A DNA stretch of 63,777 nucleotides, counting the filler, from Reclinomonas americana ATCC 50394 (taxonomy: Eukaryota), in assembly GCA_048213135.1 (NCBI GenBank). It is 15 parts of 15 records of this genome, joined end to end, with 100 filler letters (N's around TTAATTAATTAA, not from the genome) between each part and the next. Parts side by side here need not be neighbours in the genome. Positions count along the whole stretch, not along the records: positions 28,242 to 32,993 come from AFZH01021624.1; 14 more parts are not named here. The stretch is one strand, 5' to 3'. Below are positions 615 to 39,179 of this stretch, piece by piece; position 1 is the first letter of the stretch; the number at the start of each line of letters is the position of its first letter. The notes below the pieces were generated by a model. That model saw only the letters and a list, made by a program, of their open reading frames with translations. It was not told where the DNA came from and did no database searches. Made by a program: the position numbers and the translations under genes.

Positions 615-925
615 ATGCGATCAGCGCGAGGTCGTGCGCGTCCTGAGCGAGAACAAGAGGAAGAGGAGGAGGAAGAAGGAGAAGAAGAAGAGGAGCAGCA
701 GCAACGCGCGTGGGATCCAGAGGGAATCGTCGGCACTGCGTTGCATGAGGGCGACACGGATTCGGAGGTGAGAGGTGGTTTGAAGAGAGAGGGAGGGAGG
801 GGGAAGGGAGAGGGAGAGAAGGGAGGGAGAAGGAGGGGGAGAGAGACAACAACACTTGTGATGCAATCAAGCACTCCACACTCGCTCATCTGTTGGTGTG
901 CGTGTGAGTGTGTGTGTGTGTGTGA

Positions 926-966
<41 letters not shown>

Positions 967-1642
967 GAGAGCGAGAAAGACTGCAAGACTTGTGATGCAT
1001 TGATTCACTCACTCTCTCTCTCTCACTCACTCTCTCTCATTTCTGTTGTGTGTGTGTGTGTGAGAGAGAGAGAGTGAGTGAGTGAGTGTGTGTGTGAGAG
1101 TGCGAAAGACTGCAAGACTTGTGATGCATTGAGACTCTCTCTCTCTCACACACTCTCATTTCTGTTGTGTGTGTGTGTGTGTGTGAGTGTGTGTGTGTGT
1201 GTGTGTGTGTTTGTGTGTGAGTGTGCGTGTGTGTCTGTGTGTCTCAATGTGAGAATGCATGCATTGGTGCATATGCGAGCGTGTGTGTGTGTGCGATGGA
1301 GAGTGAGAGAGGTTCTCTCTTTCTCTCATGTGTCGTGCGTGCATCATTCATTCACGCAGTGGTCTCGTTTGCATACGTTTTCTTGCCTCCAACTCTCACT
1401 GTCTCTTGCGCCTTCTGTGTGTCAAGAGTTTTTCTGTCGCCTTCTCTCTCTCCTTCTGTTTTCCTTCTCTCACGCTCTCTTGCTGAGTGAGAGACGCGAC
1501 GAGGGTGCACATGTGCTTCTCGTTCAGCCTCTCAGTACCTCGCCTTTGTGTGATAGAGGCGAGACGCCAGAGTTCTGTCGCTCGCTCCCCTTGTGTTTCA
1601 TTCTCTCCTTCTCTGAGAAGCAAGAATGCAAGAGATTTCTGT

Positions 1643-1687
<45 letters not shown>

Positions 1688-7344: not shown

Positions 7345-7387
<43 letters not shown>

Positions 7388-10166: not shown

Positions 10167-10206
<40 letters not shown>

Positions 10207-20308: not shown

Positions 20309-22264
20309 ATGGGGATAACGCTGGCGCGCCCGGCCATAGGTGGCATCATTTCCTTGACATCGATTCAACGAATGATTCGGGCCATGCAAAAGCAGCTGAC
20401 GTTGGAAGAGGTAGACCGCCTCGAAAAAAGCGTGAAGACCTTCGCCATCTCGGTGGTTGACCGCGTCCTGGATCGCGCTCTGCGAAACGCGCGGCTGGAC
20501 GCGCATTACGCCGCTCAGAGGGCTCTCTCGGGTGGCTCTTTCGCACGCTCGACCGGGCGCTCGGCGCGTCTCTCAAAGGTTATCGTGCGTGCCCTGAAAT
20601 CGCATTATACGCAGATCGCAGTGCCACCTTCGGTGCGGCTGACGATGCCGGGCGGCGGTGTCAGCTTTCATTTCGATCACGTCTCGGTTTCGGCGCGTTC
20701 AATGGCGCTCCAGAAGGGTGAGCGTCGAAACGGCGTCAACAAGTGGCACAAGCAGCCATACGCTCGCGACATTCGCTGGACCTCTCGGGCATCTGCGCAT
20801 CAGATCTATATCGAGCGGCCGTCTGCTCGCGATGAGATCGAAGAGTGGGATGCGGCGCGCGCGCAGCGCTATATCGAAGACGCTGACAAGGTTGCTTTGA
20901 ACGGCGGCAAAGGGAACGATGACTTCTCCTTCGGCAACATCGGCCAAACGCTCCGGGAACGGACCGAGTTCTGGGAACTGGCCTGCAAGGGAGCCGAACG
21001 CGAAAACGGGATCATCCAGCACCGATTCATCGTGCAGTTGCCGAAGGAAGCTTCTGCGCTTGAGCGCAAAGCGATAATGGAAGCTTTCGTCGCGCCGTTT
21101 CAGAAAGAGGGAATGCGCTTCTGGGTGGCTCTTCACGCGCCCACGGCTGACAATGATCCCCGGAACTTTCACGCACACGTTGTGATGTATCATCGCCCGG
21201 CCAGGAAGGTGCTATGGAGCGATCCAGCCTCGGGATCAGACACGCCCGTCAGAATTTGGGATTTCGCCTGTGCGCGGCGCGAAAAGACCAAATGTCGGCG
21301 CTGGAAGGTCATCTTCCCCGAGAGGCAGAAGGTCCCTGACTGGATGCGGGGTCCATTTGTCCTTAAGCAGCGGAGGCGGTTTGCCGACTGCGTCAACGAA
21401 GTGATGAGCGCGGCTGGGAAGGGCCACGTCAAATACGATCCGCGCAGCTACGAAGAGGCTGGAATCAAGGCAACACCGGAGAAAAAGGCGAAATACGCGA
21501 GCAAGGTCGATCGACACGACCGGGATCACACGATCGATGAGCTGGTTGGGGACCTCGCGACCAAGAACCACTCTGAGTCTCGTCGAATACACGAGGGTGA
21601 ATGGGATATCCTCAGCGAGCTCGAGGCACGCCTGGCGGCAGGCTTGCCGGTCTCTGTGGCGTCGCTGCATGAGGCTACTCGGATCCCTATGACGGTCACC
21701 GGGTCTAACATCTCCGGACAAGTTGGCCCGGAGGCGCGATCGGCCGCCGAGACCTATGCCAAAGCGCGTCTCGACCAGCTGCACTCGCGAGAGCAGGCTG
21801 ACCTTGAGATCGGAATTCTGGACACGGCCGCATCGGCTACCGCGCCGGATGCCGTCAGGCGTCATCGAGCCAGACTGAAGGCTCAGTTGTCCCAGGGCTC
21901 GCCGCAGGCGCGTGAGAGGACGCGAACCGCTCATTCGGAAGTGGCTGATGATGCAGAGGCCGAAGCGCTCCATGATGCCGCTATGCGCGAACGCGAGACA
22001 AGGCGGCGGCAGTTCGACAGGGAGCTCGCGACTCGCGAAGCGGAAACCCGCTTTGCGCTCGATCGCCTGCTCATGTCCCTGCGCCGGGAGCAGCGACAGC
22101 GTAATCGGCAAAATGCCTCTATTGCCCCAATGCAGGTGCGCAGCTCCCCGGAGCAACGGGCAGCATCTCGTGCTGAAAGCCCATCTGCCGCAGCCGTGTC
22201 AGCAGAGCCGATTCGGCGCCCCACCACAGCTCCTGCGCCGCGTGGAAAGGGGTATGGCGACTAG
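20309..22264 (+). CDS. MobA/MobL (MOBQ) family relaxase
   Basis: Motifs QHRFIVQLPKE, VALHAPTADNDPRNFHAHVVM (HUH) and YDPRSYEEAGI, with a helical C-terminus. The start may be 20372 or 20384. Confidence 0.85.
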   Translation: MGITLARPAIGGIISLTSIQRMIRAMQKQLTLEEVDRLEKSVKTFAISVVDRVLDRALRNARLDAHYAAQRALSGGSFARSTGRSARLSKVIVRALKSHYTQIAVPPSVRLTMPGGGVSFHFDHVSVSARSMALQKGERRNGVNKWHKQPYARDIRWTSRASAHQIYIERPSARDEIEEWDAARAQRYIEDADKVALNGGKGNDDFSFGNIGQTLRERTEFWELACKGAERENGIIQHRFIVQLPKEASALERKAIMEAFVAPFQKEGMRFWVALHAPTADNDPRNFHAHVVMYHRPARKVLWSDPASGSDTPVRIWDFACARREKTKCRRWKVIFPERQKVPDWMRGPFVLKQRRRFADCVNEVMSAAGKGHVKYDPRSYEEAGIKATPEKKAKYASKVDRHDRDHTIDELVGDLATKNHSESRRIHEGEWDILSELEARLAAGLPVSVASLHEATRIPMTVTGSNISGQVGPEARSAAETYAKARLDQLHSREQADLEIGILDTAASATAPDAVRRHRARLKAQLSQGSPQARERTRTAHSEVADDAEAEALHDAAMRERETRRRQFDRELATREAETRFALDRLLMSLRREQRQRNRQNASIAPMQVRSSPEQRAASRAESPSAAAVSAEPIRRPTTAPAPRGKGYGD

Positions 22265-23962: not shown

Positions 23963-24063
23963 NNNNNNNNNNNNNNNNNNNNNNNNNNNNNNNNNNNNNN
24001 NNNNNNTTAATTAATTAANNNNNNNNNNNNNNNNNNNNNNNNNNNNNNNNNNNNNNNNNNNNC

Positions 24064-24537
24064 CTGGCGGAATGGCCGCTGGAGCGCTTCGACCTCGTCG
24101 CCGGGCTGGCGCTGCGCGGCGGCGTCCCCGACTTCGCCGATCGCGAGCTCAATCTCTGGGCAGCCTTCGCCAGGGCTGCGCCGGACCTCGATAAGCTCGC
24201 GAGGCGGGCCCGGACGATGTTCGGCATCAGCGATCGACTGATCACTCTCGCCGCGACTGGACCCGATAATGCCTCCGAGCTCATGGTCGCCGCCGAAGGG
24301 GCCCGCATCGCGGCCTACCTCGCCGCGGCCCAGGTGATGATCTGGCCGCCGCGCGGCGCGGCCGGGCTGGCGGCGAAGAACGAGATCGTCGCGCTGATCA
24401 ACCAGCGCGGCGAATCCGGCGATCCGGTGGAGATGCAGGCCGCCATCCGCCACGTCGCCGCGGAATCCGCCTGGCTGAAGTCGTTGTCGTCCGAGATGCG
24501 CGAGCGGCTCAAATTCGAGTGGAGTGAGATCGTCTGA
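24064..24537 (+). CDS. Hypothetical protein, 5' truncated; paralogue of 24683-25630
   Basis: The frame is open from the contig edge. AAFARAAPDLDKLARRARTM and IWPPRGAAGLAAK align with EAFFYAPPDFGELLDRARAL and LWPARSEGDLAAK in the next gene. Confidence 0.75.
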   Translation: MAEWPLERFDLVAGLALRGGVPDFADRELNLWAAFARAAPDLDKLARRARTMFGISDRLITLAATGPDNASELMVAAEGARIAAYLAAAQVMIWPPRGAAGLAAKNEIVALINQRGESGDPVEMQAAIRHVAAESAWLKSLSSEMRERLKFEWSEIV

Positions 24538-24562
24538 CGAGCCCGTCCGGGCACAGGACAGG

Positions 24563-24591
24563 AGGCAGCGCCGGCACCGGCGCTGCCTTTT
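24563..24591 (+). terminator. Intrinsic terminator-like hairpin
   Basis: AGGCAGCGCCG-GCAC-CGGCGCTGCCT followed by TTT. Confidence 0.65.
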
Positions 24592-24682
24592 CGATTCAAG
24601 TCCGGCCCGGGAGGCCGAAGCAGAGAGGGAGAAAAAGCGACTGCCACGAGCAGATCACCCCCGAAAATCAGGAATTCAGACC

Positions 24683-25630
24683 ATGAAGACCAAGACCTCC
24701 CGCGCCACGACGAAGCTCAGCACGATCATGCGCGACACCGTCCACCATCCCGTGACCGACGATCTCGCCGGTCTCGATCGTCTCGTTCCGGAGGCTCCAA
24801 GCGAATTCGAGCAGTTCGCGCTCTTCCATGCGCAGCTGCCAGCCCTGCTCGAGCTGCGCGGCCGCGGCCAGGTTCACTCTGAGCAGGTGCAGCGCCTCAT
24901 CAAGCTCCTTGCCAAGGAGCCGGACCTCGTCGGAACCTGGATAGACGTCGCCAACGCGATGACGGTGCTGACGAACGCATCCCACCTCGCGCTAATGCTG
25001 CTGCCCGCCCGCACCGATGATGACAGCTGGACGCTAGGCGATTTGGGGCGCCACCTGCTCAATCGCGCACGAGCCCATGGCGATCAGCGCGATATCGATC
25101 TGGCACGCCGCGTCGTCGGGCGCCTGCCCGCCACGCCGCGGCTCAATCTGAGCCGTGAGCCCGAGGCCGTCCAGGACATGATCAACGCGATGGTCCGCCG
25201 GGCCGCCGCACTCCACCCGGCTCCGGACGCGTTCCATGAAGTTGGGCGCCCCGGCATCCATGTGCTCGAACAGGCGGATAGTCTCGAGGCCTTCTTCTAC
25301 GCGCCGCCGGATTTCGGCGAACTGCTTGATCGGGCCAGGGCGCTGCTCCGCAAGATCGACGGCCTCCGGCTTCATCATCTTCCGCCAGTCCGCGAGCAGC
25401 CCGCATACGAGGGCATGCTCATACTCGCTTACGCAAAGCTGCTGCGCATCGCGCTCTGGCCGGCCCGGAGCGAAGGCGACCTCGCAGCAAAGATCGCGGC
25501 CAGCGACCTCGTTCGCTCGCGCGACGGCGACGCCGACCGCTACCGGGCGCTCTTCGAGATCGCTCTCGGACAGGGCGAGACCATCGCGCGGCAGAGCGAC
25601 CGGTTCATCAATCTCGATCGCGCGGACTGA
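24683..25630 (+). CDS. Hypothetical protein (315 aa)
   Basis: AGGA RBS before ATGAAGACCAAGACC, GC3-rich codons and a WPARSEGDLAAK motif. Confidence 0.78.
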   Translation: MKTKTSRATTKLSTIMRDTVHHPVTDDLAGLDRLVPEAPSEFEQFALFHAQLPALLELRGRGQVHSEQVQRLIKLLAKEPDLVGTWIDVANAMTVLTNASHLALMLLPARTDDDSWTLGDLGRHLLNRARAHGDQRDIDLARRVVGRLPATPRLNLSREPEAVQDMINAMVRRAAALHPAPDAFHEVGRPGIHVLEQADSLEAFFYAPPDFGELLDRARALLRKIDGLRLHHLPPVREQPAYEGMLILAYAKLLRIALWPARSEGDLAAKIAASDLVRSRDGDADRYRALFEIALGQGETIARQSDRFINLDRAD

Positions 25631-25665
25631 CAGACGAAGGACCAGCTCAACCTGATGCCTAAGAG

Positions 25666-25691
25666 GGCGCGTCCATCCGGACGCGCCTTTT
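25666..25691 (+). terminator. Intrinsic terminator-like hairpin
   Basis: GGCGCGTCC-ATCC-GGACGCGCC followed by TTTT. Confidence 0.65.
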
Positions 25692-25767
25692 CCGTTTCAG
25701 GAGAGGGGTGGAAGAGCTGACCAGCTACCCCCGAAAGCCAATCCAGGCCGGGAAGCAGAAACAGGAC

Positions 25768-26919
25768 ATGACGACAAGGAAGAGCAAGCGGCAGGAGGCC
25801 TACTCCGTCCTCGGCGACACCAAGCCGGTCGCAATCGACGTGACCAACGGCACCTCGACATCATCCGCGGAATCCGAAAGCCTTGCCTCCTCGGCCCAAG
25901 ACCGCACGCACGTCGCGATCTTCGACCGCGACGCACTCCATAGGCAGCTACGACTCGGCGGCGTGCACGACAGCTACGACAGCGCCGCTGTTCCATTGTC
26001 GACGTCGCAGGAAGAGCAGGCCCGGCTCGAGCGCTTGCGCACGCTCTACTTCGAGAATCCGGAGCGGACGCTCCTCATCGGGACGATTGAGATGCATGCA
26101 GCTCTCGCTGCGCTCCGCGACGAATGCCCGGCCTTCCTGCCAGTGATCGATCTCGTCGACCGCGCCGTCCATCTGTCGAGGATGGCGGGAACAGGCCTTG
26201 CGATACCGCCGCTGCTCCTCGTCGGTGCGCCGGGCACGGGAAAGACTCATTTCAGCAAGCGATTGGCGGCAGCGCTCGGCGCCGAGCAGCACGCCTTCAG
26301 CTGTGCGACGAATTCGGATGCTCAAGCGCTGGTAATCGGGCACCCGGTCTCCTGGAAAGGAGCTCGCATGGGCGTGGTCACCGAGGCCCTGCTGGGTGGC
26401 GAAATCGCCAATCCGCTGATCGTGCTCGACGAGCTCGACAAGTTCGTCACGCATGTGACGGAGCAGCCCTACAACACGCTTCTCGCTCTCCTCGAGCCTG
26501 AAAACGCGTCAGCGCTGGTCGATGAATATCTGCGAGTACCCTTCGACGTCTCTCATGTGTTGATCCTCGCCACGGCTAACGATCTCAACGCGCTACCCGA
26601 GTTTATTCGCGATCGCCTGTTGATCATCCGCGTCCTCGCGCCGAGCGGCTTGGGGCTGCTGGCCGTCACCAGACGCATCGTCCAGACGATCATTGCCGCG
26701 CATCGCGACGTCTTCGACCAACCCGACGACGTGGTCATCATGCGACTGGCAAGAGCCCATCCGCGCCGTGTCCGACGCGTTGCGACGCTCGCTCTCGGTC
26801 ATGCCGCCGCCGCCAGCCGGACGCGCATCCTCGTTAACGACATCGATGCCGCTGAACGGATCGCTGCAGACGCCCCGACGGCCATGCCGATCGGCTTTCT
26901 CCAGCATCATCACGCTTGA
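25768..26919 (+). CDS. Stand-alone Lon-type AAA+ ATPase with no protease domain
   Basis: Walker A GAPGTGKT, Walker B LIVLDELDK, the Lon-like segment LLALLEPE...DEYLRVPFDVSHVLILATAN, and a C-terminal PIGF. Confidence 0.85.
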   Translation: MTTRKSKRQEAYSVLGDTKPVAIDVTNGTSTSSAESESLASSAQDRTHVAIFDRDALHRQLRLGGVHDSYDSAAVPLSTSQEEQARLERLRTLYFENPERTLLIGTIEMHAALAALRDECPAFLPVIDLVDRAVHLSRMAGTGLAIPPLLLVGAPGTGKTHFSKRLAAALGAEQHAFSCATNSDAQALVIGHPVSWKGARMGVVTEALLGGEIANPLIVLDELDKFVTHVTEQPYNTLLALLEPENASALVDEYLRVPFDVSHVLILATANDLNALPEFIRDRLLIIRVLAPSGLGLLAVTRRIVQTIIAAHRDVFDQPDDVVIMRLARAHPRRVRRVATLALGHAAAASRTRILVNDIDAAERIAADAPTAMPIGFLQHHHA

Positions 26920-26962
26920 ACGCGCTTCCCCTCATTCACCGACCACACTGAAAGACGTCTCC

Positions 26963-27805
26963 ATGACCACGAATACGCCTGCCGGCAGCGCGGGGGCCAG
27001 CCTTCCCCGTATCCAGCCCATTGGCAGCAGCGCAGCCGTCACGCGCTACCTGAGAACCGATTGGCCCAGGGTGGGCGGGTCAAACTTTCGTCCTCTTACG
27101 CACGACGCCTTCCTGAAGCCGTGCTTCGCCCTGCGCTATCAGCCGGGATTTCTGGTCAGCGTCTATCTGGCAGCATGCGGCAACGCGCCTGGCGATCTGA
27201 AAGGGACCACGGGTTTGCTTGGTGTCGCGCGCCGCCTCCAACTGCCTCTGTACAAGGTGTCTGCGACCGAATGTGCCGATCCCAGGATCAGGTTGAAGGA
27301 ACTCAATCGGGATCGCTATGCCGCCAACGTCATCGACCCGGACGGTGCCTTCCTTCAGGAAGAGGGATTCCAGCAGTGGACTTTTCAGCAATTCCTGCCG
27401 GATCGCGAGCCGTTGCCGGGATCGCCCGTCATCGACCAGGGGCGCTTCTTCACGGTGCGTCGGCCGCACGACATGGACAAGGATGCCTTCGACAAGCTGC
27501 TGCATGTCCGGTTGAAGGCGGCCAGCTTTAATGCGTTTCTGCAATCCCGCGCAGGAAAGGCACACTGCGCAACGCTCGGTCTCAAGCCCGAGGAGCAGAT
27601 GCGCTACACGCACTATCGCTTCGCCGAGACGCCTCGCATCGATCCTGCCCAAGAGCTTTATATCTTCAGGCCCGCTGGGGAGGATTCCGATCGGCTTCTC
27701 GGGATCATCGAAAAGCTGATCTACGACTGGGTGACCGGGGCGATCCCGCGCGAGCCGGCCTGGTGGCGCGATCCGGGCCAGCAGGCCCGGCGACGCCTCG
27801 CATAA
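26963..27805 (+). CDS. Hypothetical protein, possibly a divergent GIY-YIG (T5orf172-like) nuclease
   Basis: The pattern VSVYLAAC...LYKVSAT...PRIRLKELN recalls VY...YKIGxT...RxxEL. The ORF is solid but the family call is weak. Confidence 0.55.
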   Translation: MTTNTPAGSAGASLPRIQPIGSSAAVTRYLRTDWPRVGGSNFRPLTHDAFLKPCFALRYQPGFLVSVYLAACGNAPGDLKGTTGLLGVARRLQLPLYKVSATECADPRIRLKELNRDRYAANVIDPDGAFLQEEGFQQWTFQQFLPDREPLPGSPVIDQGRFFTVRRPHDMDKDAFDKLLHVRLKAASFNAFLQSRAGKAHCATLGLKPEEQMRYTHYRFAETPRIDPAQELYIFRPAGEDSDRLLGIIEKLIYDWVTGAIPREPAWWRDPGQQARRRLA

Positions 27806-27827
27806 TGCACCGAGTTGCAGCCGGGTT

Positions 27828-28432
27828 TCAGGAAGCTGCCCAGTCGGTCACCATCAGGCCCGGCACGCGCTCAAACTCACGTCGGTTGCCAGTGACGAGG
27901 ACCGCGCCACGCCGACGTGCCTGTGCCGCGATCAGCGTGTCATAAGCTCCGATCGGGGTTCCCGCTGCTTCGAGCGCGGCGCGGATGTCGCCGGCTTCGC
28001 CGGCGTCACCATCGTCGAGCGGGACAATCTCGAAGCCCTCGGAAAGGAATGCGTCGAGAACCCTCCCGGAGGATTCGCGGCGGTTGCTCTTCGCGATGCC
28101 ATATCTGAGTTCGAAGATCACGATCGGCGAAATGAGGAGCCNNNNNNNNNNNNNNNNNNNNNNNNNNNNNNNNNNNNNNNNNNNNTTAATTAATTAANNN
28201 NNNNNNNNNNNNNNNNNNNNNNNNNNNNNNNNNNNNNNNNNATGCGTCGAGAACCCTTCCCGGAGGATTCGCGGCGGTTGCTCTTCGCGATGCCATATCT
28301 GAGTTCGAAGATCACGATCGGCGAAATGAGGAGCCGGGTTCCTGCGGTGAGTTCCTGCTGAAGCCTAAGATCGACAGCGGGAACCCGGCCATTGAGCGCG
28401 TGCACGATGACATTGGTATCGAGCAGAAACAT
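27828..28432 (-). CDS. vapC: VapC PIN-domain toxin (split by a gap whose flanks overlap)
   Basis: Motifs LLDTN, ELRYG, GTPIGAYDTLIAAQAR and VTGNRREFERVPGL. 28049-28141 duplicates 28242-28335 with a 1-bp indel, so this is a single gene. Confidence 0.93.
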
Positions 28433-28437
28433 GCTGC

Positions 28438-28710
28438 TCAGCCGAAATCGACCGCAGCGTCCGGCTCCGCCGGAGGATCGTCAGGCAGCCTTTCGGTGAG
28501 AAAGTCGCGGGCTCCCAGCGCATCCAGCCTGGCACGCCAGACTGCTGCGTCGAATGCCGGCTTTGCGATCGGCTCAAGGATAACCTTGTCACCGACCTTG
28601 CTGACCTGCACCTCTGTCCCCTCGAACCGAAACTCCTTCGGAAGACGAACAGCCTGACTGCGGCCATGCATGAAGAGCTTGGCTGTCGCTGCGTTGCCCT
28701 GAGCGCCCAT
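28438..28710 (-). CDS. vapB: VapB antitoxin, AbrB/MazE fold
   Basis: [20 protein letters not shown] motif, GGAGG RBS, 5 nt upstream of vapC. Confidence 0.92.
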
Positions 28711-28726
28711 CGACACCTCCATTTCG

Positions 28727-28747
28727 ATATCTACCGTTGATAGATAT
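28727..28747. promoter_or_regulatory. vapBC operator palindrome
   Basis: ATATCTA-N7-TAGATAT immediately upstream of the vapB RBS. Confidence 0.7.
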
Positions 28748-28789
28748 TGCAGGAGCTGGACGTGTCAATATGACAAGCCCGATACTGCA

Positions 28790-30475
28790 TCATCTCGAAC
28801 CTCCAAACGCGACCTTCTGAGCCTCGACCCAATCCGATGACAGCTTCGGGAACAGTGGCGGAGGGGCGACAACCTTTCGTCTCTCTGACCCGCCCGAGCT
28901 AAGGATGCACGGCGCGGTCGGCCAGAGGGGCTGTCCAGGCCAATGTCCCACAGCGGCGAGGACGCGCTCGGCGGTTCCAGGGATAAAGCTCCACGCGGTC
29001 TGGGCAGCAATTTCGACCAACGTGACCGCTGTTCTGATGACGACGGCGGTTCGCACGGGATCATTGGCATGGGTCGACCAGGGCGCCTCCCTGGCAAGGT
29101 ACGCATTCCCGAGCCGCCAGATCTGCCGCACCTCGTCGGCTGCCTTGCGAACGGATAGGTCCTTGTGATGCCCTCGAAGCGAAGTGAGATGTGCCTCGAT
29201 TTGGCGAGACAGCTCGCGTTCGGGCGCGTCGATGGCGCCAATTTCCGGAACGATGCCGCCATATCGACTCTCCACGAACTTGAGAGTTCGGCTTACGAAG
29301 TTTCCGAAAGTGTCTGCCAGGTCGTGGTTTATATCGGCTGCAAACCTCTCGAAGGTGAAGTCCGTGTCGCTGCTCTCAGGCGCATTGGACGCCAGCCACC
29401 AGCGCCAGTAGTCGGCCGGCAGCAAGGCCAGAGCCTGATCGAGGAAGATACCGCGCCGCAGGCTGGTCGAGAACTTGCCACCGTCATAGGTCAGCCAGTT
29501 CACGCCCTTGATCACGTCGACGGTCTTCCACGGCTCGCGCGAGCCGAGCAGCGTGCAAGGAAAGCTCACGGCGTGGAATGGAACGTTGTCCTTGCCAAGA
29601 AATTGCCGGTAGTCGACGTCGTGGGCGTCCCACCACCATCGACGCCAATCTCTCCCGTCGGCGGCGTCACACCATTCCTGCGTCGCTGCGATGTAGGCAA
29701 TCGGCGCATCGAACCAGACATAGAAAACCTTGCCCTCGAAGCCCGGCTTCGGCACTGGCACTCCCCAGTCGAGATCGCGGGTGATGCAGCGGTCCTGGAT
29801 GCCCTCGTTCAACCATTTCCGGGCGATGGACGTCACGAGCGGTGGCCAGCCCGGGCGCGACGCGATCCAGGTCTCCAGCTCGCCGACCAGCGCTGACTGT
29901 CGCAAGAAAAGATGCCGGCTCGAGCGGATCTCCAGTCTCTCGCTGCCTGACAGGAGCGAGCGCGCGTCGATCAGGTCGACGGGGTCGAGCGGGCGCGTAC
30001 AATTCTCGCACTGGTCGCCTCGCGCTCGCTCGAAGCGACAATGGGGACAGGTGCCGATGATGTAGCGGTCAGGCAGAAAGCGCCCGTCTTCGGGAGAATA
30101 GACCTGATCGAGGACGCGCTCCTCGATGAAGCCATTGTCTTCGAGGCAGCGGAAAAAGTGCTGGGTCAACGCACGGTTATGCGAGGAAGACGAACGGCCG
30201 AAATGATCGAACGAGAGATCGAGCCGGCGATAGATCGCCGCTTGGATCTCGTGTTGCTCCCGGCAGAAATCCGCGACCTGCTGGCCAGCTTCCGCTGCTG
30301 CAATTTCGGCTGGCGTACCATGTTCGTCGGTTGCGCAGATAAACAGGACGTCGTCGCCAATCTGCCGCCGGAGGCGCGCGTGAATGTCAGCCGGCAGCAG
30401 GGAGCCTGCGAAGTTGCCGAGATGCTTGATGCCATTGATGTAAGGCAGTGCGCTTGTGATGAGTGCCTTCGCCAT
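28790..30475 (-). CDS. metG: Methionine--tRNA ligase (MetRS2-like), probably an accessory copy
   Basis: ITSALPYINGIKHLGN (HIGH motif), TDEHG, zinc knuckle CPHC...GDQCENC, FYVWFDAPIAY and KFSTS (KMSKS motif); no C-terminal tRNA-binding domain. Confidence 0.96.
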   Translation of the reverse strand: MAKALITSALPYINGIKHLGNFAGSLLPADIHARLRRQIGDDVLFICATDEHGTPAEIAAAEAGQQVADFCREQHEIQAAIYRRLDLSFDHFGRSSSSHNRALTQHFFRCLEDNGFIEERVLDQVYSPEDGRFLPDRYIIGTCPHCRFERARGDQCENCTRPLDPVDLIDARSLLSGSERLEIRSSRHLFLRQSALVGELETWIASRPGWPPLVTSIARKWLNEGIQDRCITRDLDWGVPVPKPGFEGKVFYVWFDAPIAYIAATQEWCDAADGRDWRRWWWDAHDVDYRQFLGKDNVPFHAVSFPCTLLGSREPWKTVDVIKGVNWLTYDGGKFSTSLRRGIFLDQALALLPADYWRWWLASNAPESSDTDFTFERFAADINHDLADTFGNFVSRTLKFVESRYGGIVPEIGAIDAPERELSRQIEAHLTSLRGHHKDLSVRKAADEVRQIWRLGNAYLAREAPWSTHANDPVRTAVVIRTAVTLVEIAAQTAWSFIPGTAERVLAAVGHWPGQPLWPTAPCILSSGGSERRKVVAPPPLFPKLSSDWVEAQKVAFGGSR

Positions 30476-30527
30476 GATGCCCTCCCTGGGGTCATTTCAC
30501 GGGTCAAGCGCCAGACCTTCGATCAAC

Positions 30528-30557
30528 AAAAAAGCCCTCCGCAGATCCGGAGGGCTT
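30528..30557 (-). terminator. Intrinsic terminator in the metG leader (attenuator)
   Basis: The minus strand reads AAGCCCTCCG-GATCTG-CGGAGGGCTT-TTTT, about 50 nt upstream of the metG start. Confidence 0.85.
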
Positions 30558-30594
30558 GGGTCCAGCGCTTACACGCGCGGCGATAGGCACGCGC

Positions 30595-30663
30595 TCAACC
30601 CCTCCGGCCAATCTCCTGCTGGTCGGGCCTGCGCATTCGCGTGGCGGGGAAGGACGAAAACAT
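30595..30663 (-). CDS. Putative metG leader peptide MFSSFPATRMRRPDQQEIGRRG
   Basis: GGAG RBS 6 nt upstream and one internal Met codon (30634-30636). Its 3' end contains the strand complementary to the terminator 5' arm. Confidence 0.6.
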   Translation of the reverse strand: MFSSFPATRMRRPDQQEIGRRG

Positions 30664-30825
30664 CAAAGGCTCCAGGGCGATGCAATACGAATGAACGCAA
30701 ATGTTCCGTGGAGCAAGGGGCGGCGCTCGTCGAGCCTGACACACGACAGTGGATGGGCATCTGTCATCATCTGGCACGGCCCGGTGCTTTCTGATGGTCT
30801 TCAGCTTCACGAGGTAATGCTACCC

Positions 30826-32028
30826 ATGTCTCGAACCTACACCCGCCAGGAGATGTACGACCTCGTCTGGTCGAAGGCGCTTCGGTTGCTGTGTGCCGAT
30901 TTCAACGTGTCGGACGTGGCCCTGAAGAAGGCATGCCGCAAGGCGGACGTGCCGACGCCGCCGGTGGGTTACTGGAACAAGCTCCAGGCCGGCAAGAAGG
31001 TGACGCAGATACCGCTGCCGCGGCGTGGGCTTGGGATGTCCGACAGCGTACCCGTCGGATCGGCACGCTGGGAATATGGTCGCCGCGATGCCTTGGACCC
31101 GTTGCCTCCAGAGCCCGTTTTCGATGGCGATGAAAGTGACGTCCGGGCGCGGGCGGTCAAGCTGGTCGGCAAAGTTGCCATTCCTCGCGATTTCACGCGG
31201 GCGAGTCCAATCGTTCGTCAATTGCTTGACGAGGACGAGCGGCGCCTCGAGGAAGCGCGCAAGAACCGGTACTACTGGCAAACTCCCCGCTACGTTCTCC
31301 CAATCGATCGGCGCCGGCTGAGGCTTGCCAATGGCCTGCTGCTCGGCATCGCGTCCGCTGGCGGACGCGCCCATCTCTCCGACAAGGACGCTCTCACGTT
31401 CTCCGTTGTCGTGGGCGACCAAAGCGTCGGGCTCTCGATCGACAAGGTCGTTACGCGAAGCCGGGCGGTGCGCGGGCAGCCGGCTCCCGATCCGGTCGAG
31501 ACGATCGAGATCTCGATCAGCGGGTGGGGGTATAAGGACGGCAAACTGCATCTCTGGAAGGACGAGCCCGACGCAAAGCTTGAATCCCTGGCAACGGAAA
31601 TCGTTGTGGCGGTCTTCGCAGACGGCGAACTGCGACATCGGCATCATGTGATCGACCAGCACAAGCATCTCGTTGCTTGGCGCGCCGAGGAGATCGAGAA
31701 CCGGCGCAAGGCGAAGATCGAGGCGGAACGGAAGGAGCGCGAGAGGCAGGAACGCCTGGCAAAAGAGCGCGTGGAAAGGCTTCTTGGGGATGCCGCGGCC
31801 TTCCGCAAGGCTACGGACATCCGTGCCTACGTTGCCGCGGCGCTGGCCGTTTCTCCTGCCGACACCGATCCCGCTGCCATCGAGGTGTGGCGGCGGTGGG
31901 CTCTGGCTCAGGCCGACCGGATCGATCCTGTCGTCAACCGGAGCTTCGTTGCGCTTTCGGCCGACCTGCTGGGCAGCGAGCCCATACCGGAGGCCGCTGG
32001 ACCGGAAGGCCAGGAGTCACAGGAGTGA
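30826..32028 (+). CDS. Hypothetical protein with an N-terminal HTH-like motif (TRxExYxxVW...PPxGYWxK)
   Basis: TRQEMYDLVWSK...VSDVALKKACRKADVPTPPVGYWNK and a charged coiled-coil; this pattern is common on genomic islands. Confidence 0.75.
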   Translation: MSRTYTRQEMYDLVWSKALRLLCADFNVSDVALKKACRKADVPTPPVGYWNKLQAGKKVTQIPLPRRGLGMSDSVPVGSARWEYGRRDALDPLPPEPVFDGDESDVRARAVKLVGKVAIPRDFTRASPIVRQLLDEDERRLEEARKNRYYWQTPRYVLPIDRRRLRLANGLLLGIASAGGRAHLSDKDALTFSVVVGDQSVGLSIDKVVTRSRAVRGQPAPDPVETIEISISGWGYKDGKLHLWKDEPDAKLESLATEIVVAVFADGELRHRHHVIDQHKHLVAWRAEEIENRRKAKIEAERKERERQERLAKERVERLLGDAAAFRKATDIRAYVAAALAVSPADTDPAAIEVWRRWALAQADRIDPVVNRSFVALSADLLGSEPIPEAAGPEGQESQE

Positions 32029-32050
32029 CAGCTGTTTCAGCTGTTACGCG

Positions 32051-32993
32051 TCAGGCCGCATCATTCGCGGGTGCGTGGCCGGGCACGATATAGGTCCCGT
32101 AGGCAGTCCGGATAATATCGCCTTTGGCATCCATCCTGCGCAACGTCGTCCGCGCCGTGCCGGGCTTGATCTCGAGCGCAGCTGCGACTTCGGCTGGAGC
32201 GACAGACCGTCCCTGGGCGATGATGAACTCGATGATCCGCTGTTGCTCGGGAAAAAGGGATGTGACGTCCTGACCCTGAACCGGGCGCCAGCACATGGCC
32301 TGGCGGTCGAAGGCAACGATCTCATCAACCTCCTCAATGTCGCGCCCGCGCGCCAGGAGACGGCAGTTGGTCCGGCCTCGCACCATAACCAAGCTTGTAT
32401 CGGCAGCGCCCAGCACGCCAACCGTGCCGAGGATACGCTGATGCGCATCGCGCCCACCGGATCCCTTCGAGAGATGATGAACGAGGATGATTCCGATCCT
32501 CGCTAGGTCCGCGATCTCGCGGAGGCGAGAGATCTCCTCATAGGCACCCTGGTACGACGATCTCGGCGCCAGCGGTCGAATCCGCTCGAACACATCGACG
32601 ATAATCGCGCGGGGCCGGGGGCAGGTCCTTGCCCAGTCGAGCATGGCTTCAGCGCCACCCTGATCGAGCCGGTCCCAAGTTGTCGTCAGGGCAAGACGCG
32701 ACGGCCAGCCTGTGCTGCCGAGCATGCTGCTCAGGCGACCGTGAAGGCGGGCTTCGTTGTCTTCCAGAGCCAGATACAGAACTTCGCCGGGCAGACAGCT
32801 CCTTTCGCCGAGGCAGCCCACGCCGCGGGCGATGGATGCGGCGACGTCGAGCGCCAGCCAGGACTTCCCGGCCTTTGGCTCGCCGGCGAGGAGGGTCACA
32901 CCCTTCGGGATAAGGCGATCGACGAGGAAGTCGGTGGGGGGATAGGTTCGGGCGCTGAGCTGATCAGCTGTGACGATGGTGCCAGAGCCTGAA
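32051..32993 (-). CDS. AAA_25 / RepA-like SF4 helicase with a C-terminal wHTH; 5' truncated
   Basis: Motifs LLAGEPKAGKSWLAL, VLYLALED, IIVDVF and ILVHHLSK; the frame is open to the contig edge. Confidence 0.85.
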
Positions 32994-33973: not shown

Positions 33974-35947
33974 TCAGTCCTGGTCGTCGAAGCTGGCGGG
34001 GGGAGCCTTGGCGATCGCCTCTAGAATGCGATCGATATCAATCGGGATCACCAGCCGGTCGATGTTCTCTTTCAGCATCGCCAAGGCCTGCCCCTTATTA
34101 TAGACGCGGAAGGTCGACTTGCGGCGTGGGCTCATGTGACCGACGATCTCCTCCGCATGTTCCTGCGGGACCTTCGCGCGATGGAGCAGCGTGCAGACAC
34201 TGTGCCTGAAGGCATGGAAATCGAGCTCGAGTGGAAAGCCCGCTGCGATCTTGAAGTCTGAAAAGCGCCGACCGGGAGCCGCGCCCCACGAGTTCTGCTG
34301 GTTCGCGGCGGTGATCTCCGGAAACAGCCGCTCGGCGCCATCGCGACCCTCGACGCGCGCGGCCAGGAAACCAAGGCGCAACAGATTATCGTGCAGTGGC
34401 ACGAACCGCCGGCTCGGCTTGTCCCGGCGCTTGTCGCCCTTCAATTTCAGCGTCTTGTCGGTCTTGAGGTCGAAGTACCAGATACCGGTCTCTTCATCGC
34501 GCACGACGTGCCGGACACGCAGCTGGAAGATCTCCTCGCGCCGCATCCCGTGATGGGCTGCGATGATGACGCCCCACCAGAGCGGCGTCCGCGGAATGCA
34601 GGTGCCGATCGTCAGCCGATCGCGCTCCGAGCGACACCCGACAAAAAACGGCAGAGAGAACAGCTTTTCTTGCTGTTCCAGCTCCCACATGTCGCGGGCG
34701 CCCTTTTCGCGAAAGAGCGAACCTTCTTCCTCATCATCGTTCGTATCGACGGGCAGAAACAGGCCCTTCGTTGGTGTCTCCGCACCCGCGGGGACGGCGC
34801 CGTTGTCGATGCCGTATTCCCAGAGCAGGTTGAACAGGGAGAGATGCCGGTTGATGGTTTTTCCCTTCAGCTTCGGGATCTTCTCATCGTAGGGCTTGCC
34901 CTGGTCGAGGGCCATTGCCAGTTCAATCACATGCTTGAAGGAGCTTCCGTCCTTCAACATCCGTCCGAACTCGCCCCGGATGTACTGGGACGGCAGCTTC
35001 TGCAGCTGCCTGATCAGGTTGGAGATATGCGGCCGGGTAATCTGGTCGAGGGCGACGTCGCCGCAGAACTCGATCAGCAGCTTGTAGGTGCTCTTGCCCT
35101 GGATGGCCTGGGCATTGTCGATCCGCTTCTTCTCCACGGCATCGCTCAAGAAGGTCGACCAGATCTGGGACAGCCGAAGCCCTTTCCAGCTTGGTACCAC
35201 CACCGTGGGCGTAGCTGCATCGGTAACCGGACCGTCGGCCGTCTCGTCTCGGGCCTCGATCGCGCCGGTCCCCGCACGCTCTTGTCCGATCACCCAGGAG
35301 AGCGGCATCCGGTCCTGCACGCGCTCGCCGGGCTTCGCCGACCGCAGGCTCGCGTGGATCTGGGCGGGCGTCAGCGGGCAGTCCGCCGGCGGCGTGACGT
35401 CTCCCTCCCAGGAGATCGTGACCGAAGTGTCCTCACTCGAGGGCAGCGTGGCATACATGTCGGCAAAGCCTTCGGCGGCATGAATGCGGGCGCGGGTCAG
35501 CGCGTTCGTCACCAGCGCGGTCCGGATCTCGTCAGCTGACAGGTCGGCCGGGATTATTCCCTCGCGCATCGCCTGGTGGAGAAAGGCCGAAAGGCCCATC
35601 ATCTTGGCGCGCTGGTCCGTCGCATTTTCGAGAGGGTGGGCGGGTTGGCCTGCTGCGACGCGTCCGAGGACCGCGTCCTCATGCCTCGTCCAGGTGGCAC
35701 TTGCGATGCTGGCCTCCGCCAGAGAGCGGACTGCCTCTCGCGTCATCGCCGGGTTCGCACGGATCGTCATGAAGAGGGTCTCCGTCGCCTGCCACAGGGC
35801 TGATGCCATGCGGCGGGCTTCTCCGGGGGTAGCCCGGCCCAGGGACCTGACGATCTCGGTGGCACCGATTCGCGCTTTCAGATCCTGGGGGATTTTACGC
35901 CGAAACAGGGTAGTCGCCCCGCGACGCCGAGAACAAACGGTGATCAT
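33974..35947 (-). CDS. Tyrosine recombinase/integrase with an N-terminal DUF6538-like domain
   Basis: N-terminal FRRKIPQDL...EIVRSLG; catalytic GMRREEI, FHAFRH, VGH and a downstream Tyr (RVYNK). Confidence 0.9.
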   Translation of the reverse strand: MITVCSRRRGATTLFRRKIPQDLKARIGATEIVRSLGRATPGEARRMASALWQATETLFMTIRANPAMTREAVRSLAEASIASATWTRHEDAVLGRVAAGQPAHPLENATDQRAKMMGLSAFLHQAMREGIIPADLSADEIRTALVTNALTRARIHAAEGFADMYATLPSSEDTSVTISWEGDVTPPADCPLTPAQIHASLRSAKPGERVQDRMPLSWVIGQERAGTGAIEARDETADGPVTDAATPTVVVPSWKGLRLSQIWSTFLSDAVEKKRIDNAQAIQGKSTYKLLIEFCGDVALDQITRPHISNLIRQLQKLPSQYIRGEFGRMLKDGSSFKHVIELAMALDQGKPYDEKIPKLKGKTINRHLSLFNLLWEYGIDNGAVPAGAETPTKGLFLPVDTNDDEEEGSLFREKGARDMWELEQQEKLFSLPFFVGCRSERDRLTIGTCIPRTPLWWGVIIAAHHGMRREEIFQLRVRHVVRDEETGIWYFDLKTDKTLKLKGDKRRDKPSRRFVPLHDNLLRLGFLAARVEGRDGAERLFPEITAANQQNSWGAAPGRRFSDFKIAAGFPLELDFHAFRHSVCTLLHRAKVPQEHAEEIVGHMSPRRKSTFRVYNKGQALAMLKENIDRLVIPIDIDRILEAIAKAPPASFDDQD

Positions 35948-36002: not shown

Positions 36003-36175
36003 CATGCGCCTTGAGGGCACCGAACAGGCGCGCAAAAAGACTCAAGGAAATCAGCGNNNNNNNNNNNNNNNNNNNNNNNNNNNNNNNNNNNNNNNNNNNN
36101 TTAATTAATTAANNNNNNNNNNNNNNNNNNNNNNNNNNNNNNNNNNNNNNNNNNNNTCGTCTCTCTCTCTCTCTC

Positions 36176-36380: not shown

Positions 36381-37578
36381 CCGACCTGCTGTCCCCGGAG
36401 GAACCCGATCGCATCTTCACCGACTTGGTGAAGCTGGACGAGGGCTCGAGCGGTGCCGTGTATCGCGGTGTCGACAGTCGCGACGGAACGGTGGTGGCCA
36501 TCAAGATCATTCAGATTCGTGCCGACACCAAGCTGGAGTCGCTGGAGAACGAAATTGCCATTCTGCAGACATGCGTGCACCCCAACATTGTGAAGTACAT
36601 TGGATCGTACTCGAAGGGCTCGGATCTGTGGGTGCGTATAAGCGCTGCTGCTCCTCACTGTCGCTTTGATGGCTGACTCAATCCTCGAAACCCCCCACAC
36701 GCACACACAGCTGGTGATGGAGTTTATGCAAGGCGGCAAGCTGACCGACGCGCTGCTTCCTCGGCGGTTCAATGAGGCGGAGATTGCCACTGTGTGCTTG
36801 CATTCGTTGCGCGGACTGGGCTACTTGCACGAGGCACAGCTGGTCCATCGTGATATCAAGAGTGACAATGTGTTGCTGGGTGCGAGGGGAGAGATCAAAG
36901 TTGGTGAGTTTGAATTGGGAAAGGGCAAAGTTTGTGTGATTTATTTTCCGTCTCAGGGACGAGAGAGTCTCTCTGTGCATCGCACTGTTACTTACTCTTC
37001 TCTCGACGCTCGCAGCGGACTTTGGTTTCTGCGCGGAGCTCACGGAGGGTGCTCAGAAGCGCCGTTCAGTGGTCGGCACACCGTACTGGATGGCGCCGGA
37101 GGTGATTCGTGGCATCGACTACGACACAAAAGTGGACATTTGGAGCATGGGCATTATGGCGCTGGAGTTGGCCGAGGGCGAGCCACCGCTGTTGGACTTG
37201 CCGCCGCTGCGAGTTTCGTGGGCGGTGGAGAGTGCAGTGTTTAGCAACTTCCCTTTCTGCGTGTGCACACATCGTTGCTCATCGGCGTATCGATCCTCCC
37301 TTGTGTGCTATATCCCCCTTCCTCCTCCCTTCCTCCCCCGTTCCCTTGTCCACTCATCCCTTCTTTTTTTTCGGCAGGCCCTCTTCGTGATCGCCACACA
37401 ACCACCCCCAACGCTGAAGGATGCCAGTCGCTGGACGCCCGAGTTCCGCGACTTTTTGGCTCGCTGCCTGGCCAAGCTGCCACAGCAACGCGCGACGGCT
37501 GCGGAGCTGCTGGCGCATCCGTTCATTGCCGGTGCATCGGAGGACACGAGCTTTATCCGCGATCTCATCCCTCGCTAG
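36381..37578 (+). CDS. PAK/STE20 family Ser/Thr kinase; 5' partial, 4 exons
   Basis: Exons at 36381-36631, 36711-36903, 37016-37212 and 37378-37578; motifs VAIK, HRDIKSDNVLL, ADFGFCA, VGTPYWMAPE and AEGEPP. Confidence 0.93.
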
Positions 37579-37827: not shown

Positions 37828-38919
37828 TCACAATCGGCTATTGGCAAAGCATCGATGGACGACCACCTCCGCCTCCTCCACCACAAAGCACCGCAGCACA
37901 ATCTCCACCAGACAGCGCTGCTCATCCTCGTCACCCCCTTCCACGCCTTGTTGCATCTCTTGCACGACGCGCATGGCCGACCGCGCACAGTCGAGCTCCT
38001 GCTGCGCGAGATCAAAGGGAGTGGACCACACCCGCACAGTCATGTCCTGGCCACCCGCACTCGCAATGTGGCGACCGTCGAGGGAGACAGCGACAGAATA
38101 CACTGGACCAGAGTGTCCCTCCAACCGTCGTACCTCCTCTCCGCTCGCCATCGACCACACTCGCACTGTCATATCTCGACTTCCGCTCACAACATGTTGG
38201 CCGTCGGTGGAGACGGCGAGAGAGCTCACCTCGCTCGTGTGCCCCTCCAGCCGCTGCACTTCCTCGCCTGTTGCCAGCGACCACACCCGGACCGTGAGGT
38301 CCCGACCACCGCTCACCACATGCAGCCCGTCGGGAGTGACAGCGACTGACCGCACCAAGTGAGTGTGCCCCACAAACCGGCGCACTTCCTCCCCGCTCCT
38401 CACAGACCACATGCGAATGGTTTTATCTCCACTTCCGCTCACGACATGCTGACTGTCGGGCGTGACGGCGACAGACCACACGATACCCGAGTGTCCCTTC
38501 AACAGCTGCACCTCGTCTCCACTCTCCAGTGACCACACTCGCACATTCGTGTCGAAACTGCCGCTCACGACATGCTGACCGTCGGGGGTGACAGTGATAG
38601 AGAACACAGTGTCAGTGTGACCTTTCAAAAGCCGCACTTCGTCACCACTCGCCAGTGACCACACTCGCACAGTGAAATCCCGACCACCACTGACAATGTG
38701 CTGGCCGTTGGGAGTGAGGGCGACACACATTGCGACGCGCGTGTGACCCATCAATCGTCGCACTTCTGCGCCACTCTCCACTGACCACACTCGCACTGAC
38801 ATGTCGGCTCCACAACTCACAATGTGCATGCCGTCGGCAGTGACAGCGATGGAGTACACACTGTTTGTGTGTCCGCGCAGGCACTTGCTGGGGAGAGAGG
38901 GTGGAGGTGGCGAGGACAT
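37828..38919 (-). CDS. WD40 array copy 1 (7 blades + conserved tail)
   Basis: Intronless; seven 42-aa GH...SG.D.TVRVWS repeats. Confidence 0.9.
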   Translation of the reverse strand: MSSPPPPSLPSKCLRGHTNSVYSIAVTADGMHIVSCGADMSVRVWSVESGAEVRRLMGHTRVAMCVALTPNGQHIVSGGRDFTVRVWSLASGDEVRLLKGHTDTVFSITVTPDGQHVVSGSFDTNVRVWSLESGDEVQLLKGHSGIVWSVAVTPDSQHVVSGSGDKTIRMWSVRSGEEVRRFVGHTHLVRSVAVTPDGLHVVSGGRDLTVRVWSLATGEEVQRLEGHTSEVSSLAVSTDGQHVVSGSRDMTVRVWSMASGEEVRRLEGHSGPVYSVAVSLDGRHIASAGGQDMTVRVWSTPFDLAQQELDCARSAMRVVQEMQQGVEGGDEDEQRCLVEIVLRCFVVEEAEVVVHRCFANSRL

Positions 38920-39179
38920 GGTGCGTGCGAGAGAGGTACGTACGTAAGAAGCTGTAAGAGAGAGAGAGAGTGTTGCTTGTCCTCCACGGCAGGGACATAT
39001 GTTGTCGAAAAGCACGTCAGCGACCCGTGGGTGAATTTTTACTGCACGGAAACTGCAGGGAAGGCAACACTGCTTTTGCAGTCACCACATATAACCTCGT
39101 GAGAAAAAATGCACGGAAAGGAAAGAGAGAAAGAGAGAAGGACGCTCTTCCATGCCAGGTGAAGTTCACTGCATCACGA

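Follow-up and report, generated by a model that had tools for sequence, protein, structure and literature searches.

We analysed a 63,777-nucleotide stretch of DNA, filler included, from the genome assembly of Reclinomonas americana ATCC 50394 (GCA_048213135.1), hereafter called the window. On its minus strand, in the piece from 28242 to 32993, a conserved leader precedes metG, a gene encoding a methionyl-tRNA synthetase (MetRS). Our comparisons indicate that this leader is probably a ribosome-mediated (leader-peptide) transcription attenuator that senses Met-tRNA, placed before a second, horizontally spread MetRS gene. The leader contains a short open reading frame (ORF) with an invariant Met codon and a stop codon at a fixed position, followed by an intrinsic terminator whose 5′ arm overlaps one strand of an alternative helix. 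The parts and their geometry are conserved among relatives, and carrier genomes contain two types of MetRS. The features of the element, in the order of transcription, are as follows.

30670..30673, minus strand: candidate Shine-Dalgarno sequence GGAG, 6 nt before the leader ATG
30595..30663, minus strand: leader ORF of 22 codons (MFSSFPATRMRRPDQQEIGRRG, then stop), with ATG at 30663 and TGA at 30597-30595
30634..30639, minus strand: CGA (Arg, 30639-30637) and AUG (Met10, 30636-30634), the invariant codon pair and proposed sensing site
30620..30630, minus strand: region 1 (AGGCCCGACCA), 5′ strand of a weak 1:2 hairpin
30591..30610, minus strand: region 2 (CCGGAGGGGUUGAGCGC), the last five codons, the stop codon and the next bases; 5′ strand of the antiterminator
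30575..30594, minus strand: middle G+C hairpin, GCGCG ... CGCGC, immediately following the stop codon, from the RNAalifold consensus
30547..30568, minus strand: 3′ strand of the antiterminator, GCGCU-G-GACC-CAAGC-CCUCCGG, overlapping the terminator 5′ arm
30528..30557, minus strand: intrinsic terminator, with stem 30557-30532 (10 pairs, 7 of them G-C, 6-nt loop) and U run 30533-30528
30505..30517, minus strand: clamp strand GGUCUGGCGCUUG, after the U run, predicted to pair with 30571-30559 and so to enclose the terminator hairpin
30480..30486, minus strand: metG Shine-Dalgarno sequence GGGAGGG
28790..30475, minus strand: metG, encoding a 561-aa MetRS of the archaeal/eukaryotic/E. coli-like type, without the C-terminal appended domain

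Conservation of the leader and its reading frame

Taken alone, the window sequence lies within chance expectation. Its 225-nt fold has a z score of -1.67, with 8/200 shuffles folding as well, and one terminator-like site was found vs 1.2 expected in shuffles. The significance of the leader therefore comes from its conservation among relatives and not from the window alone. A protein search with the window MetRS returned 536 relatives, and the best 80 loci were kept. The leader was present in 12 of these best 80, all of them alphaproteobacterial (Bosea, Hyphomicrobiales metagenome-assembled genomes [MAGs], Bradyrhizobium sp. LTSP885 [L012], Reyranella soli NBRC 108950 [L006], and others), and only these 12 had a terminator 36-63 nt upstream of metG. 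We built a covariance model, R1, from the 12 leaders and the window. When run on the window and the best 80 loci, R1 recovered exactly those 13, the next match having E = 0.045.

We then extended the search beyond these loci. Among 151 genomes of the order to which the Bradyrhizobium genome belongs, R1 matched 7 genomes at E <= 0.001, and 3 of these matches are real (G001, G033, and G088). The weak matches in the remaining four genomes (L096-L101) were rejected as leaders. A second protein search, covering 301 genomes of the family of this Bradyrhizobium genome, found a window-type MetRS in 8, and 6 of the 8 had the leader. The leader-metG module is sporadic, being present in roughly 2-3% of the genomes sampled. 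Twenty leaders were obtained independently of any motif, 18 by protein homology and 2 by R1. Metagenomes were scanned with a pattern that fixed CGAATG, GCCCGACC, and CGGA; of its more than 118 matches, 80 loci were retrieved. R1 accepted 68 of the 80, and the other 12, which act as an internal control, were chance matches without a start codon, terminator, or metG. The aligned set comprises the window, 14 genome loci, and the 68 metagenome loci, for a total of 83 leaders, 67 of them distinct.

The leader stays with metG while the upstream genes differ between loci. Where at least 200 nt of downstream sequence was present, a MetRS N-terminus began 17-79 nt after the terminator in 56 of 59 leaders; in the window, a 45-nt spacer follows the terminator. 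The three exceptions are L001, in which a TAA lies inside the PYING motif, L165, which has a variant motif, and L148, which is followed by other sequence. In one further locus (L220, at G407:C1), a MITE-like insert of ~180 nt with long inverted repeats is located between the terminator and metG.

The initial annotation had described a ribosome binding site, a 22-codon leader ORF, and one internal Met codon on the minus strand, and all three are present there. In the window, this ORF makes up the 3′ portion of a longer frame (30810-30595) that begins with GTG. We examined the ORF across 69 leaders, consisting of the 64 distinct complete leaders and 5 new family loci (L108 and L111, which end before the U run, and L145, which ends before the stop codon, were left out). 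The stop codon is TGA in 34, TAG in 27, and TAA in 8, and its position, immediately ahead of the middle hairpin, is always the same. Met and stop are 13 codons apart in 62 of the 69, 12 in four, 11 in two, and 21 in one (L134), with the frame kept throughout. Because three interchangeable stop codons occur at one place and length changes come in steps of 3 nt, selection appears to act on translation of the ORF, as opposed to an element that works as RNA only. In the metagenome leader L134 (L134:623-746), which belongs to the window-like subfamily, the stop is missing from its usual place, and the ORF continues for another 8 codons, into the middle hairpin, to end at TAA; the terminator is kept.

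An in-frame start codon is present in 67 of the 69 leaders (ATG in 32, GTG in 35), located 8-17 codons before the Met codon and 11 codons before it in 50. The other two are L165, which is cut by a contig end, and L123, which has no ATG or GTG. In 36/67 leaders, the chosen start is preceded, at a distance of 4-16 nt, by a 4-nt Shine-Dalgarno core. In four leaders (L006, L033, L094, and L095), a promoter of the form TTGACx-N17-hexamer, identified by eye, lies 6 nt before the start codon; the ORF would therefore be leaderless there. The N-terminal residues of the leader peptide vary freely, giving 64 distinct peptides.

The Arg-Met pair, by contrast with these free N-terminal residues, is invariant, and the Arg codon is always CGA: the CGA-AUG pair is present in 20/20 of the motif-independent leaders. 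This result bears out the earlier expectation that the leader ORF and its Met codon would be conserved at homologous metG loci. The stop, too, is kept while its letters change. CGA accounts for 57 of the 685 Arg codons (8.3%) in metG and the neighboring genes of the leader loci. Since the invariant codon is one that makes up only 8.3% of local Arg codons, the constraint is on the codon and not on the residue alone. The number of Met codons other than the start is one in 37 leaders, two in 24, and three in 6 (n = 67). The peptide of L224, for example, contains R-M-P-M-P, and that of L220 contains K-M-R-M-P.

Mutually exclusive helices and the clamp strand

A strong terminator and a mutually exclusive antiterminator had been proposed for this leader, and both were found as described. 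The terminator stem is followed by TTTTTTGTT, and the hairpin alone folds at -19.5 kcal/mol. In the antiterminator, CCGGAGG (30607-30601), GGTT, a single G, and AGCGC (to 30591) are matched by GCGCT (30568-30564), G, GACC (30562-30559), and CCTCCGG (30553-30547). When the window transcript was folded up to the terminator loop, the 8-bp strand CCGGAGGG (30607-30600) closed on CCCUCCGG (30554-30547) at -32.9 kcal/mol. Across the aligned leaders, the antiterminator helix (columns 43-50 with 108-115) is paired in 88.2% of cells, a figure that falls to 29-58% if the partner strand is shifted by 1-3 columns. The terminator is paired in 88.0% of cells and the middle hairpin in 87.6%, with 4/6 pairs of the latter changed on both sides; these two counts lean towards structure because the alignment was fitted to a model that includes both helices. 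The antiterminator and the 1:2 helix are absent from that model. A third small hairpin is paired in 94.3% of cells. RNAalifold, run on a MAFFT alignment, returned the middle hairpin and the terminator only, and the antiterminator was written in by hand and then counted.

To follow the switch, we folded 64 leaders, truncating each where the terminator loop ends, so that the 3′ arm was not yet present. When the nucleotides under a ribosome at the Met codon were masked, the last five codons and stop codon paired with 5 nt or more of the terminator 5′ arm in 59/64 leaders. With no ribosome, the antiterminator formed in 36/64 and region 2 paired upstream in 29/64. With a ribosome masked at the stop codon, the antiterminator formed in 0/64, by construction. 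The comparison with and without a ribosome mask that the initial annotation had suggested favors the proposed switch (59/64 masked at Met vs 36/64 unmasked). When region 2 was shuffled and the ribosome was masked at Met, the antiterminator formed in 21-34 of the 64. The antiterminator duplex has an energy of -18.0 kcal/mol vs -10.8 (sd 3.6) kcal/mol in shuffles, and it beats all 20 shuffles in 47/64 leaders. The 18-nt stretch that matches best, taken over the whole leader, lies at most 4 nt from region 2 in 57/64. Because the untranslated leader of the window already folds into the antiterminator, a ribosome at the stop codon appears to be required for the OFF state.

The weaker 1:2 hairpin of the initial annotation is present in the window, where 30633-30595 folds at -12.0 kcal/mol. 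It is a weak element, with little covariation, and the untranslated default state of the window leader looks ON rather than super-attenuated.

A further helix, conserved among the leaders, would form around the terminator. The clamp strand would pair with the strand immediately preceding the terminator (30571-30559), and the fold that includes this clamp helix has an energy of -39.8 kcal/mol in the window. The clamp duplex has a mean energy of -19.7 kcal/mol vs -13.1 kcal/mol in shuffles, with z < -2 in 39/63 leaders. Its letters vary by subfamily (GGACC/GGUCU, GACCCGA/UCGGGUU, CGAAAUC/GGAUUUCG, and GAACCG/CGGUUC). In Reyranella-type leaders (L006 and L033), the downstream clamp strand overlaps the metG Shine-Dalgarno sequence. 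The clamp helix can only form in read-through transcripts. We also looked for a conserved complement to CGAAUGC and saw none across subfamilies by eye, uncounted; the candidates were GCAUUCG, present upstream in the window and in L001, and GGCAU, present within hairpin 3 of other subfamilies.

The downstream MetRS and the proposed mechanism

The metG product matches the Pfam family tRNA-synt_1g (PF09334) with E = 4e-141, together with Anticodon_3 (PF19303), and scores 444.1 bits on TIGR00398 (metG), above the cut-off of 336.35. Its score of 520 bits on the full-length equivalog NF001100 falls below the cut-off of 587 because the metG product does not have the C-terminal domain of that model. 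As judged from these models, the window metG encodes a bona fide MetRS. Among solved structures, it scores 390 bits on 1rqg and 383 on 5gl7, which we take to be archaeal and human cytosolic MetRS, 240 on E. coli entries, and 137 on 4dlp, presumably of the Brucella type. This order assigns the window enzyme, by similarity, to MetRS2 (archaeal, eukaryotic-cytosolic, and Gram-negative), as opposed to MetRS1.

The window MetRS had been annotated as accessory, and this description is supported in the relatives: a second MetRS of the other type was present in all seven carrier genomes tested (those of L001, L002, L004, L006, L008, L010, and L012). The other-type copies of Bosea and Bradyrhizobium are 26% and 27% identical to the window MetRS. 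These other-type enzymes are closest to 4dlp/2x1l, the Bosea copy scoring 778 bits on 4dlp, so that the order is reversed relative to the window enzyme. R1 had no match at the loci of these second copies, and in the Bradyrhizobium genome it matched one place only. In two Roseovarius genomes, a window-type MetRS without the leader is the sole MetRS. The genome of L010 (G457) contains two leader-type MetRS copies (C2:30709-31884 and C44:210027-211202, 457 bits each) besides the housekeeping enzyme. In the closest relative (L001:2704-4383, 90% identical), codon 12 of metG is a TAA inside the conserved PYING motif, and the upstream leader is intact; this metG is either a pseudogene or the result of a sequencing error.

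These features suggest the following mechanism. Transcription would start upstream of the leader ORF of 22-26 codons. A ribosome that reaches the stop codon, with UGA in its A site, would cover the last codons (region 2, CCGGAGGGG); the terminator at 30557-30532 would then form, and the transcript would end ~45 nt before metG. If Met-tRNA(Met) were scarce, the ribosome would wait at the single invariant AUG (codon 10), covering region 1 and leaving region 2 free. By a usual-footprint estimate, a ribosome with this AUG (30636-30634) in its A site would reach about 30623, so that 30630-30620 would be covered and the RNA from 30610 would be free. Free region 2 would pair with the emerging terminator 5′ arm, and RNA polymerase would read on into metG. 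We infer from this geometry that the ribosome would stall at the AUG, that the leader would respond to tRNA charging, and that read-through would rise.

The rare, invariant CGA may make a single Met codon sensitive enough, since with CGA in the P site, decoding in the A site may be slowed. In a study of yeast, inhibitory codon pairs that include CGA are reported to give ribosomes with an empty A site and a decoding-incompatible mRNA conformation (bioRxiv 10.1101/755652); that evidence is from yeast, not bacteria. Each prediction that the initial annotation had put forward as a sequence-level test of the attenuator, including the absence of a metG promoter downstream of the terminator, came out in its favor: a search of the window between the terminator and metG gave no promoter-like site.

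Several points weigh against this attenuator. The high conservation of the helices leaves only modest covariation, with 3/8 antiterminator pairs changed on both sides; position 47/111 of the antiterminator is unpaired in 25/66 cells, and the 1:2 hairpin is paired in 76.6% of cells (67 distinct sequences), with 2/10 pairs changed on both sides. Classical attenuators generally contain runs of regulatory codons, and here a single codon is invariant. Bradyrhizobium-like leaders have extra Met codons at positions where a stalled ribosome would cover region 2. L123 lacks a start codon, the stop of L134 comes 8 codons later than usual, and L148 is not followed by metG. No leader promoter was identified in the window itself. 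The 68 leaders found by pattern carry no information on the conservation of CGAATG and GCCCGACC, and many are close relatives and thus not independent. Because the antiterminator forms without a ribosome in 36/64 leaders, the OFF state can be reached only when a ribosome occupies the stop codon.

Met is also awkward for leader-peptide attenuation, as initiation on the sensor itself needs Met-tRNA, and a shortage of Met should lower initiation at the leader too. The untranslated leader of the window takes the antiterminator fold, so failed initiation (no fMet-tRNA) would also give read-through. A default-ON fold of this kind would convert a Met shortage into read-through as well, but only 36/64 leaders fold this way.

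A more ambitious version of the attenuator, which we consider speculative and rather doubtful, is that the whole module acts as an inducible cassette for swapping MetRS, self-contained and moving horizontally, that combines a CGA-sensitized single AUG, a default-ON leader, an inhibitor-insensitive type-2 MetRS, and the clamp layer. The gate would open on failed initiation or on a stall at codon 10, and nothing but a ribosome at the stop codon would close it. A type-2 MetRS would thereby be switched on in bacteria that have a type-1 housekeeping enzyme. The clamp helix would serve as a second layer, for example, in mRNA processing or stability, or through pairing in trans with the released leader RNA. 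If true, the cassette would provide soil bacteria with a natural and regulated form of resistance to natural products that target MetRS1. MetRS1 inhibitors are described as acting poorly on organisms that make MetRS2 (PMC8165550).

An alternative that we consider unlikely is a translation-coupled attenuator that responds to another signal. The R-M-x-x-P-D motif could be an arrest peptide for a small molecule or ribosome-targeting antibiotic, or the CGA (tRNA-Arg ICG) could act as a sensor of Arg charging or translation speed. CGA is as invariant as AUG in the motif-independent set, the leaders are Arg-rich with a single fixed Met codon, and in the 13-codon leaders Pro is found at +3 in 14/14 and Asp at +4 in 12/14. 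The regulated gene is nonetheless a bona fide MetRS by TIGR00398, which makes Met-tRNA the logical signal, and 30/67 leaders have extra Met codons. The P-D-R codons coincide with the region 1 strand (GCCCGACC) and the Arg codons with CCGG stems, and the conservation of the peptide may therefore be a by-product of RNA pairing. We know of no arrest motif that matches the leader peptide.

It is very improbable that the leader is an RNA-only regulator, either a riboswitch or a leader bound by a protein or tRNA (T-box-like, or MetRS acting on its own mRNA), with the ORF being incidental. Strong nucleotide conservation outside the helices, including CGAAUGC, is what such a regulator would show, and the AUG could in principle pair with a CAU anticodon. 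Against these stand the three different stop codons at a held position, the frame kept through 3-nt length changes, and the start codons and Shine-Dalgarno cores that are conserved while the N-terminal sequence varies. A scan against Rfam, with E values up to 10, returned no T-box, SAM, other riboswitch, or leader family. A T-box-like arrangement, with AUG as the specifier and UGGA pairing with the acceptor end, was considered and rejected: the UGGN of the window (GCGCUGGA) is not at that place in other subfamilies, such as L008, as judged by eye.

Hardly any probability attaches to an ordinary terminator of an upstream transcript (ORF 31668-30820 or a small RNA [sRNA]) with the metG promoter downstream and the ORF and pairing coincidental: the chance-level fold and terminator of the window alone and the weak, sub-threshold best Rfam matches to the alphaproteobacterial sRNAs RcsR1 (18.9 bits, gathering score 60) and mmgR (16.6 bits, gathering score 41) speak for it, but those matches derive from the terminator hairpin and fall far short of the gathering scores, the leader travels with metG while upstream genes differ, and the 17-79 nt spacer is taken up by the clamp strand and Shine-Dalgarno sequence, with no promoter-like site found.

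The Met-tRNA attenuator can be compared with several known systems. Leader-peptide attenuation is textbook knowledge for Trp, His, Leu, Thr, Ile/Val, and Phe, and pheM-pheST of E. coli is a classical leader-peptide attenuator of a synthetase gene. An attenuator reportedly controls the gene for a tryptophanyl-tRNA synthetase (TrpRS), auxiliary and antibiotic-resistant, in Streptomyces. Both resemble the metG leader in having a short translated ORF with cognate codons, an exclusive antiterminator and terminator, and control of a synthetase gene, and the Streptomyces gene is, like the window metG, a second copy. The metG leader differs from both in its amino acid, Met, in its one invariant codon that always follows CGA, in its weak anti-antiterminator, and in its terminator-clamping helix. 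No published Met attenuator was found in the full-text literature searched; most subscription journals were outside this search, and the result is not proof.

In Firmicutes, metS and metG have T-box leaders. These follow the same logic as the metG leader, in that a shortage of charged tRNA-Met prevents termination before MetRS. The T-box binds tRNA directly without translation, whereas the metG leader has no T-box match and its ORF evidence points to the ribosome as the reader.

Closer in phylogeny is trpL, which precedes trpE(G) in Sinorhizobium meliloti and is described as a ribosome-dependent attenuator that also yields the sRNA rnTrpL and the peptide peTrpL (PMC6614838, PMC7298713). As presented there, it is alphaproteobacterial like the metG leader, and efficient translation of the small ORF leads to termination and a released leader RNA; it differs in having Trp codons and in controlling a biosynthetic operon. 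The presence of MetRS2 beside MetRS1 is likewise described in PMC8165550. Here, an archaeal/Gram-negative-type MetRS similarly stands beside a type-1 housekeeping enzyme. Our loci differ from those cases in belonging to Alphaproteobacteria, in having their own putative attenuator, and in having no biosynthetic cluster nearby.

The ~70 distinct natural variants, with their fixed geometry and single CGA-paired sensing codon, form a directly testable system. With them one could ask how termination can be governed by one hungry codon, and whether codon-pair effects of the kind seen in yeast also act in the regulation of bacterial genes. The leader also marks a widespread second MetRS, of a type that is inhibitor-insensitive by class, in soil Hyphomicrobiales and their relatives, a point of relevance to natural resistance against MetRS inhibitors. 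In addition, it offers a compact, putative Met-responsive genetic switch.

Assembly context and neighboring genes

The window is built from contigs placed end to end, with 14 linkers (each N44-TTAATTAATTAA-N44) between them, located within 7219-61594 (e.g., 36057-36156). Because its pieces are separate contigs, gene neighborhoods across linkers are no evidence of linkage. The genes surrounding metG and those of interest in other pieces are listed below.

28242-32993: the metG piece, with a PIN-domain gene fragment at its low end, metG, the leader, and two further ORFs
31668-30820: ORF upstream of the leader, 282 aa, with no family
32899-32051: ORF in the same piece as metG, AAA_25 primase/helicase-like
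33974-35947: integrase, in a piece other than that of metG
20309-22264: MobA/MobL relaxase, in a piece other than that of metG

An island uniting metG with the integrase (33974-35947) and the relaxase (20309-22264) was considered and dropped, those genes being on separate contigs. A megablast search against plasmids gave no match to the 3-kb metG region, and no tRNA genes were found within the window. At the 9 loci examined, the gene neighborhood around metG was not conserved and no biosynthetic cluster was found.

One pair of pieces can be joined. L001, a 5.9-kb contig of a Bosea MAG whose MetRS is 90% identical to that of the window, is colinear with window positions 32993-28247 and then with 28141-27120. 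Because L001 is colinear across both pieces, and because the pieces 24063-28141 and 28242-32993 overlap by ~88 nt as judged from it, the two are taken to be truly adjacent in the genome. Just downstream of metG on the minus strand, a PIN-domain gene is split by the linker into 27828-28121 and 28242-28432, the two fragments matching positions 2-48 and 38-119 of the PIN profile. An assembly break, and not a frameshift, seems to be the cause of this split.

The pieces at 1-10300 and 36157-63777 look eukaryote-like rather than bacterial, and the assembly therefore appears to mix a Bosea-like bacterium with another organism. These pieces contain long (TC)n, (AG)n, and (GT)n microsatellites and purine/pyrimidine-skewed, low-complexity DNA. 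They also contain fragments of protein kinases (36666-37244) and numerous genes (e.g., 37828-39015, 40744-41423, and 43508-44196) with WD40 repeat units of 126 nt (42 aa) that are nearly identical.

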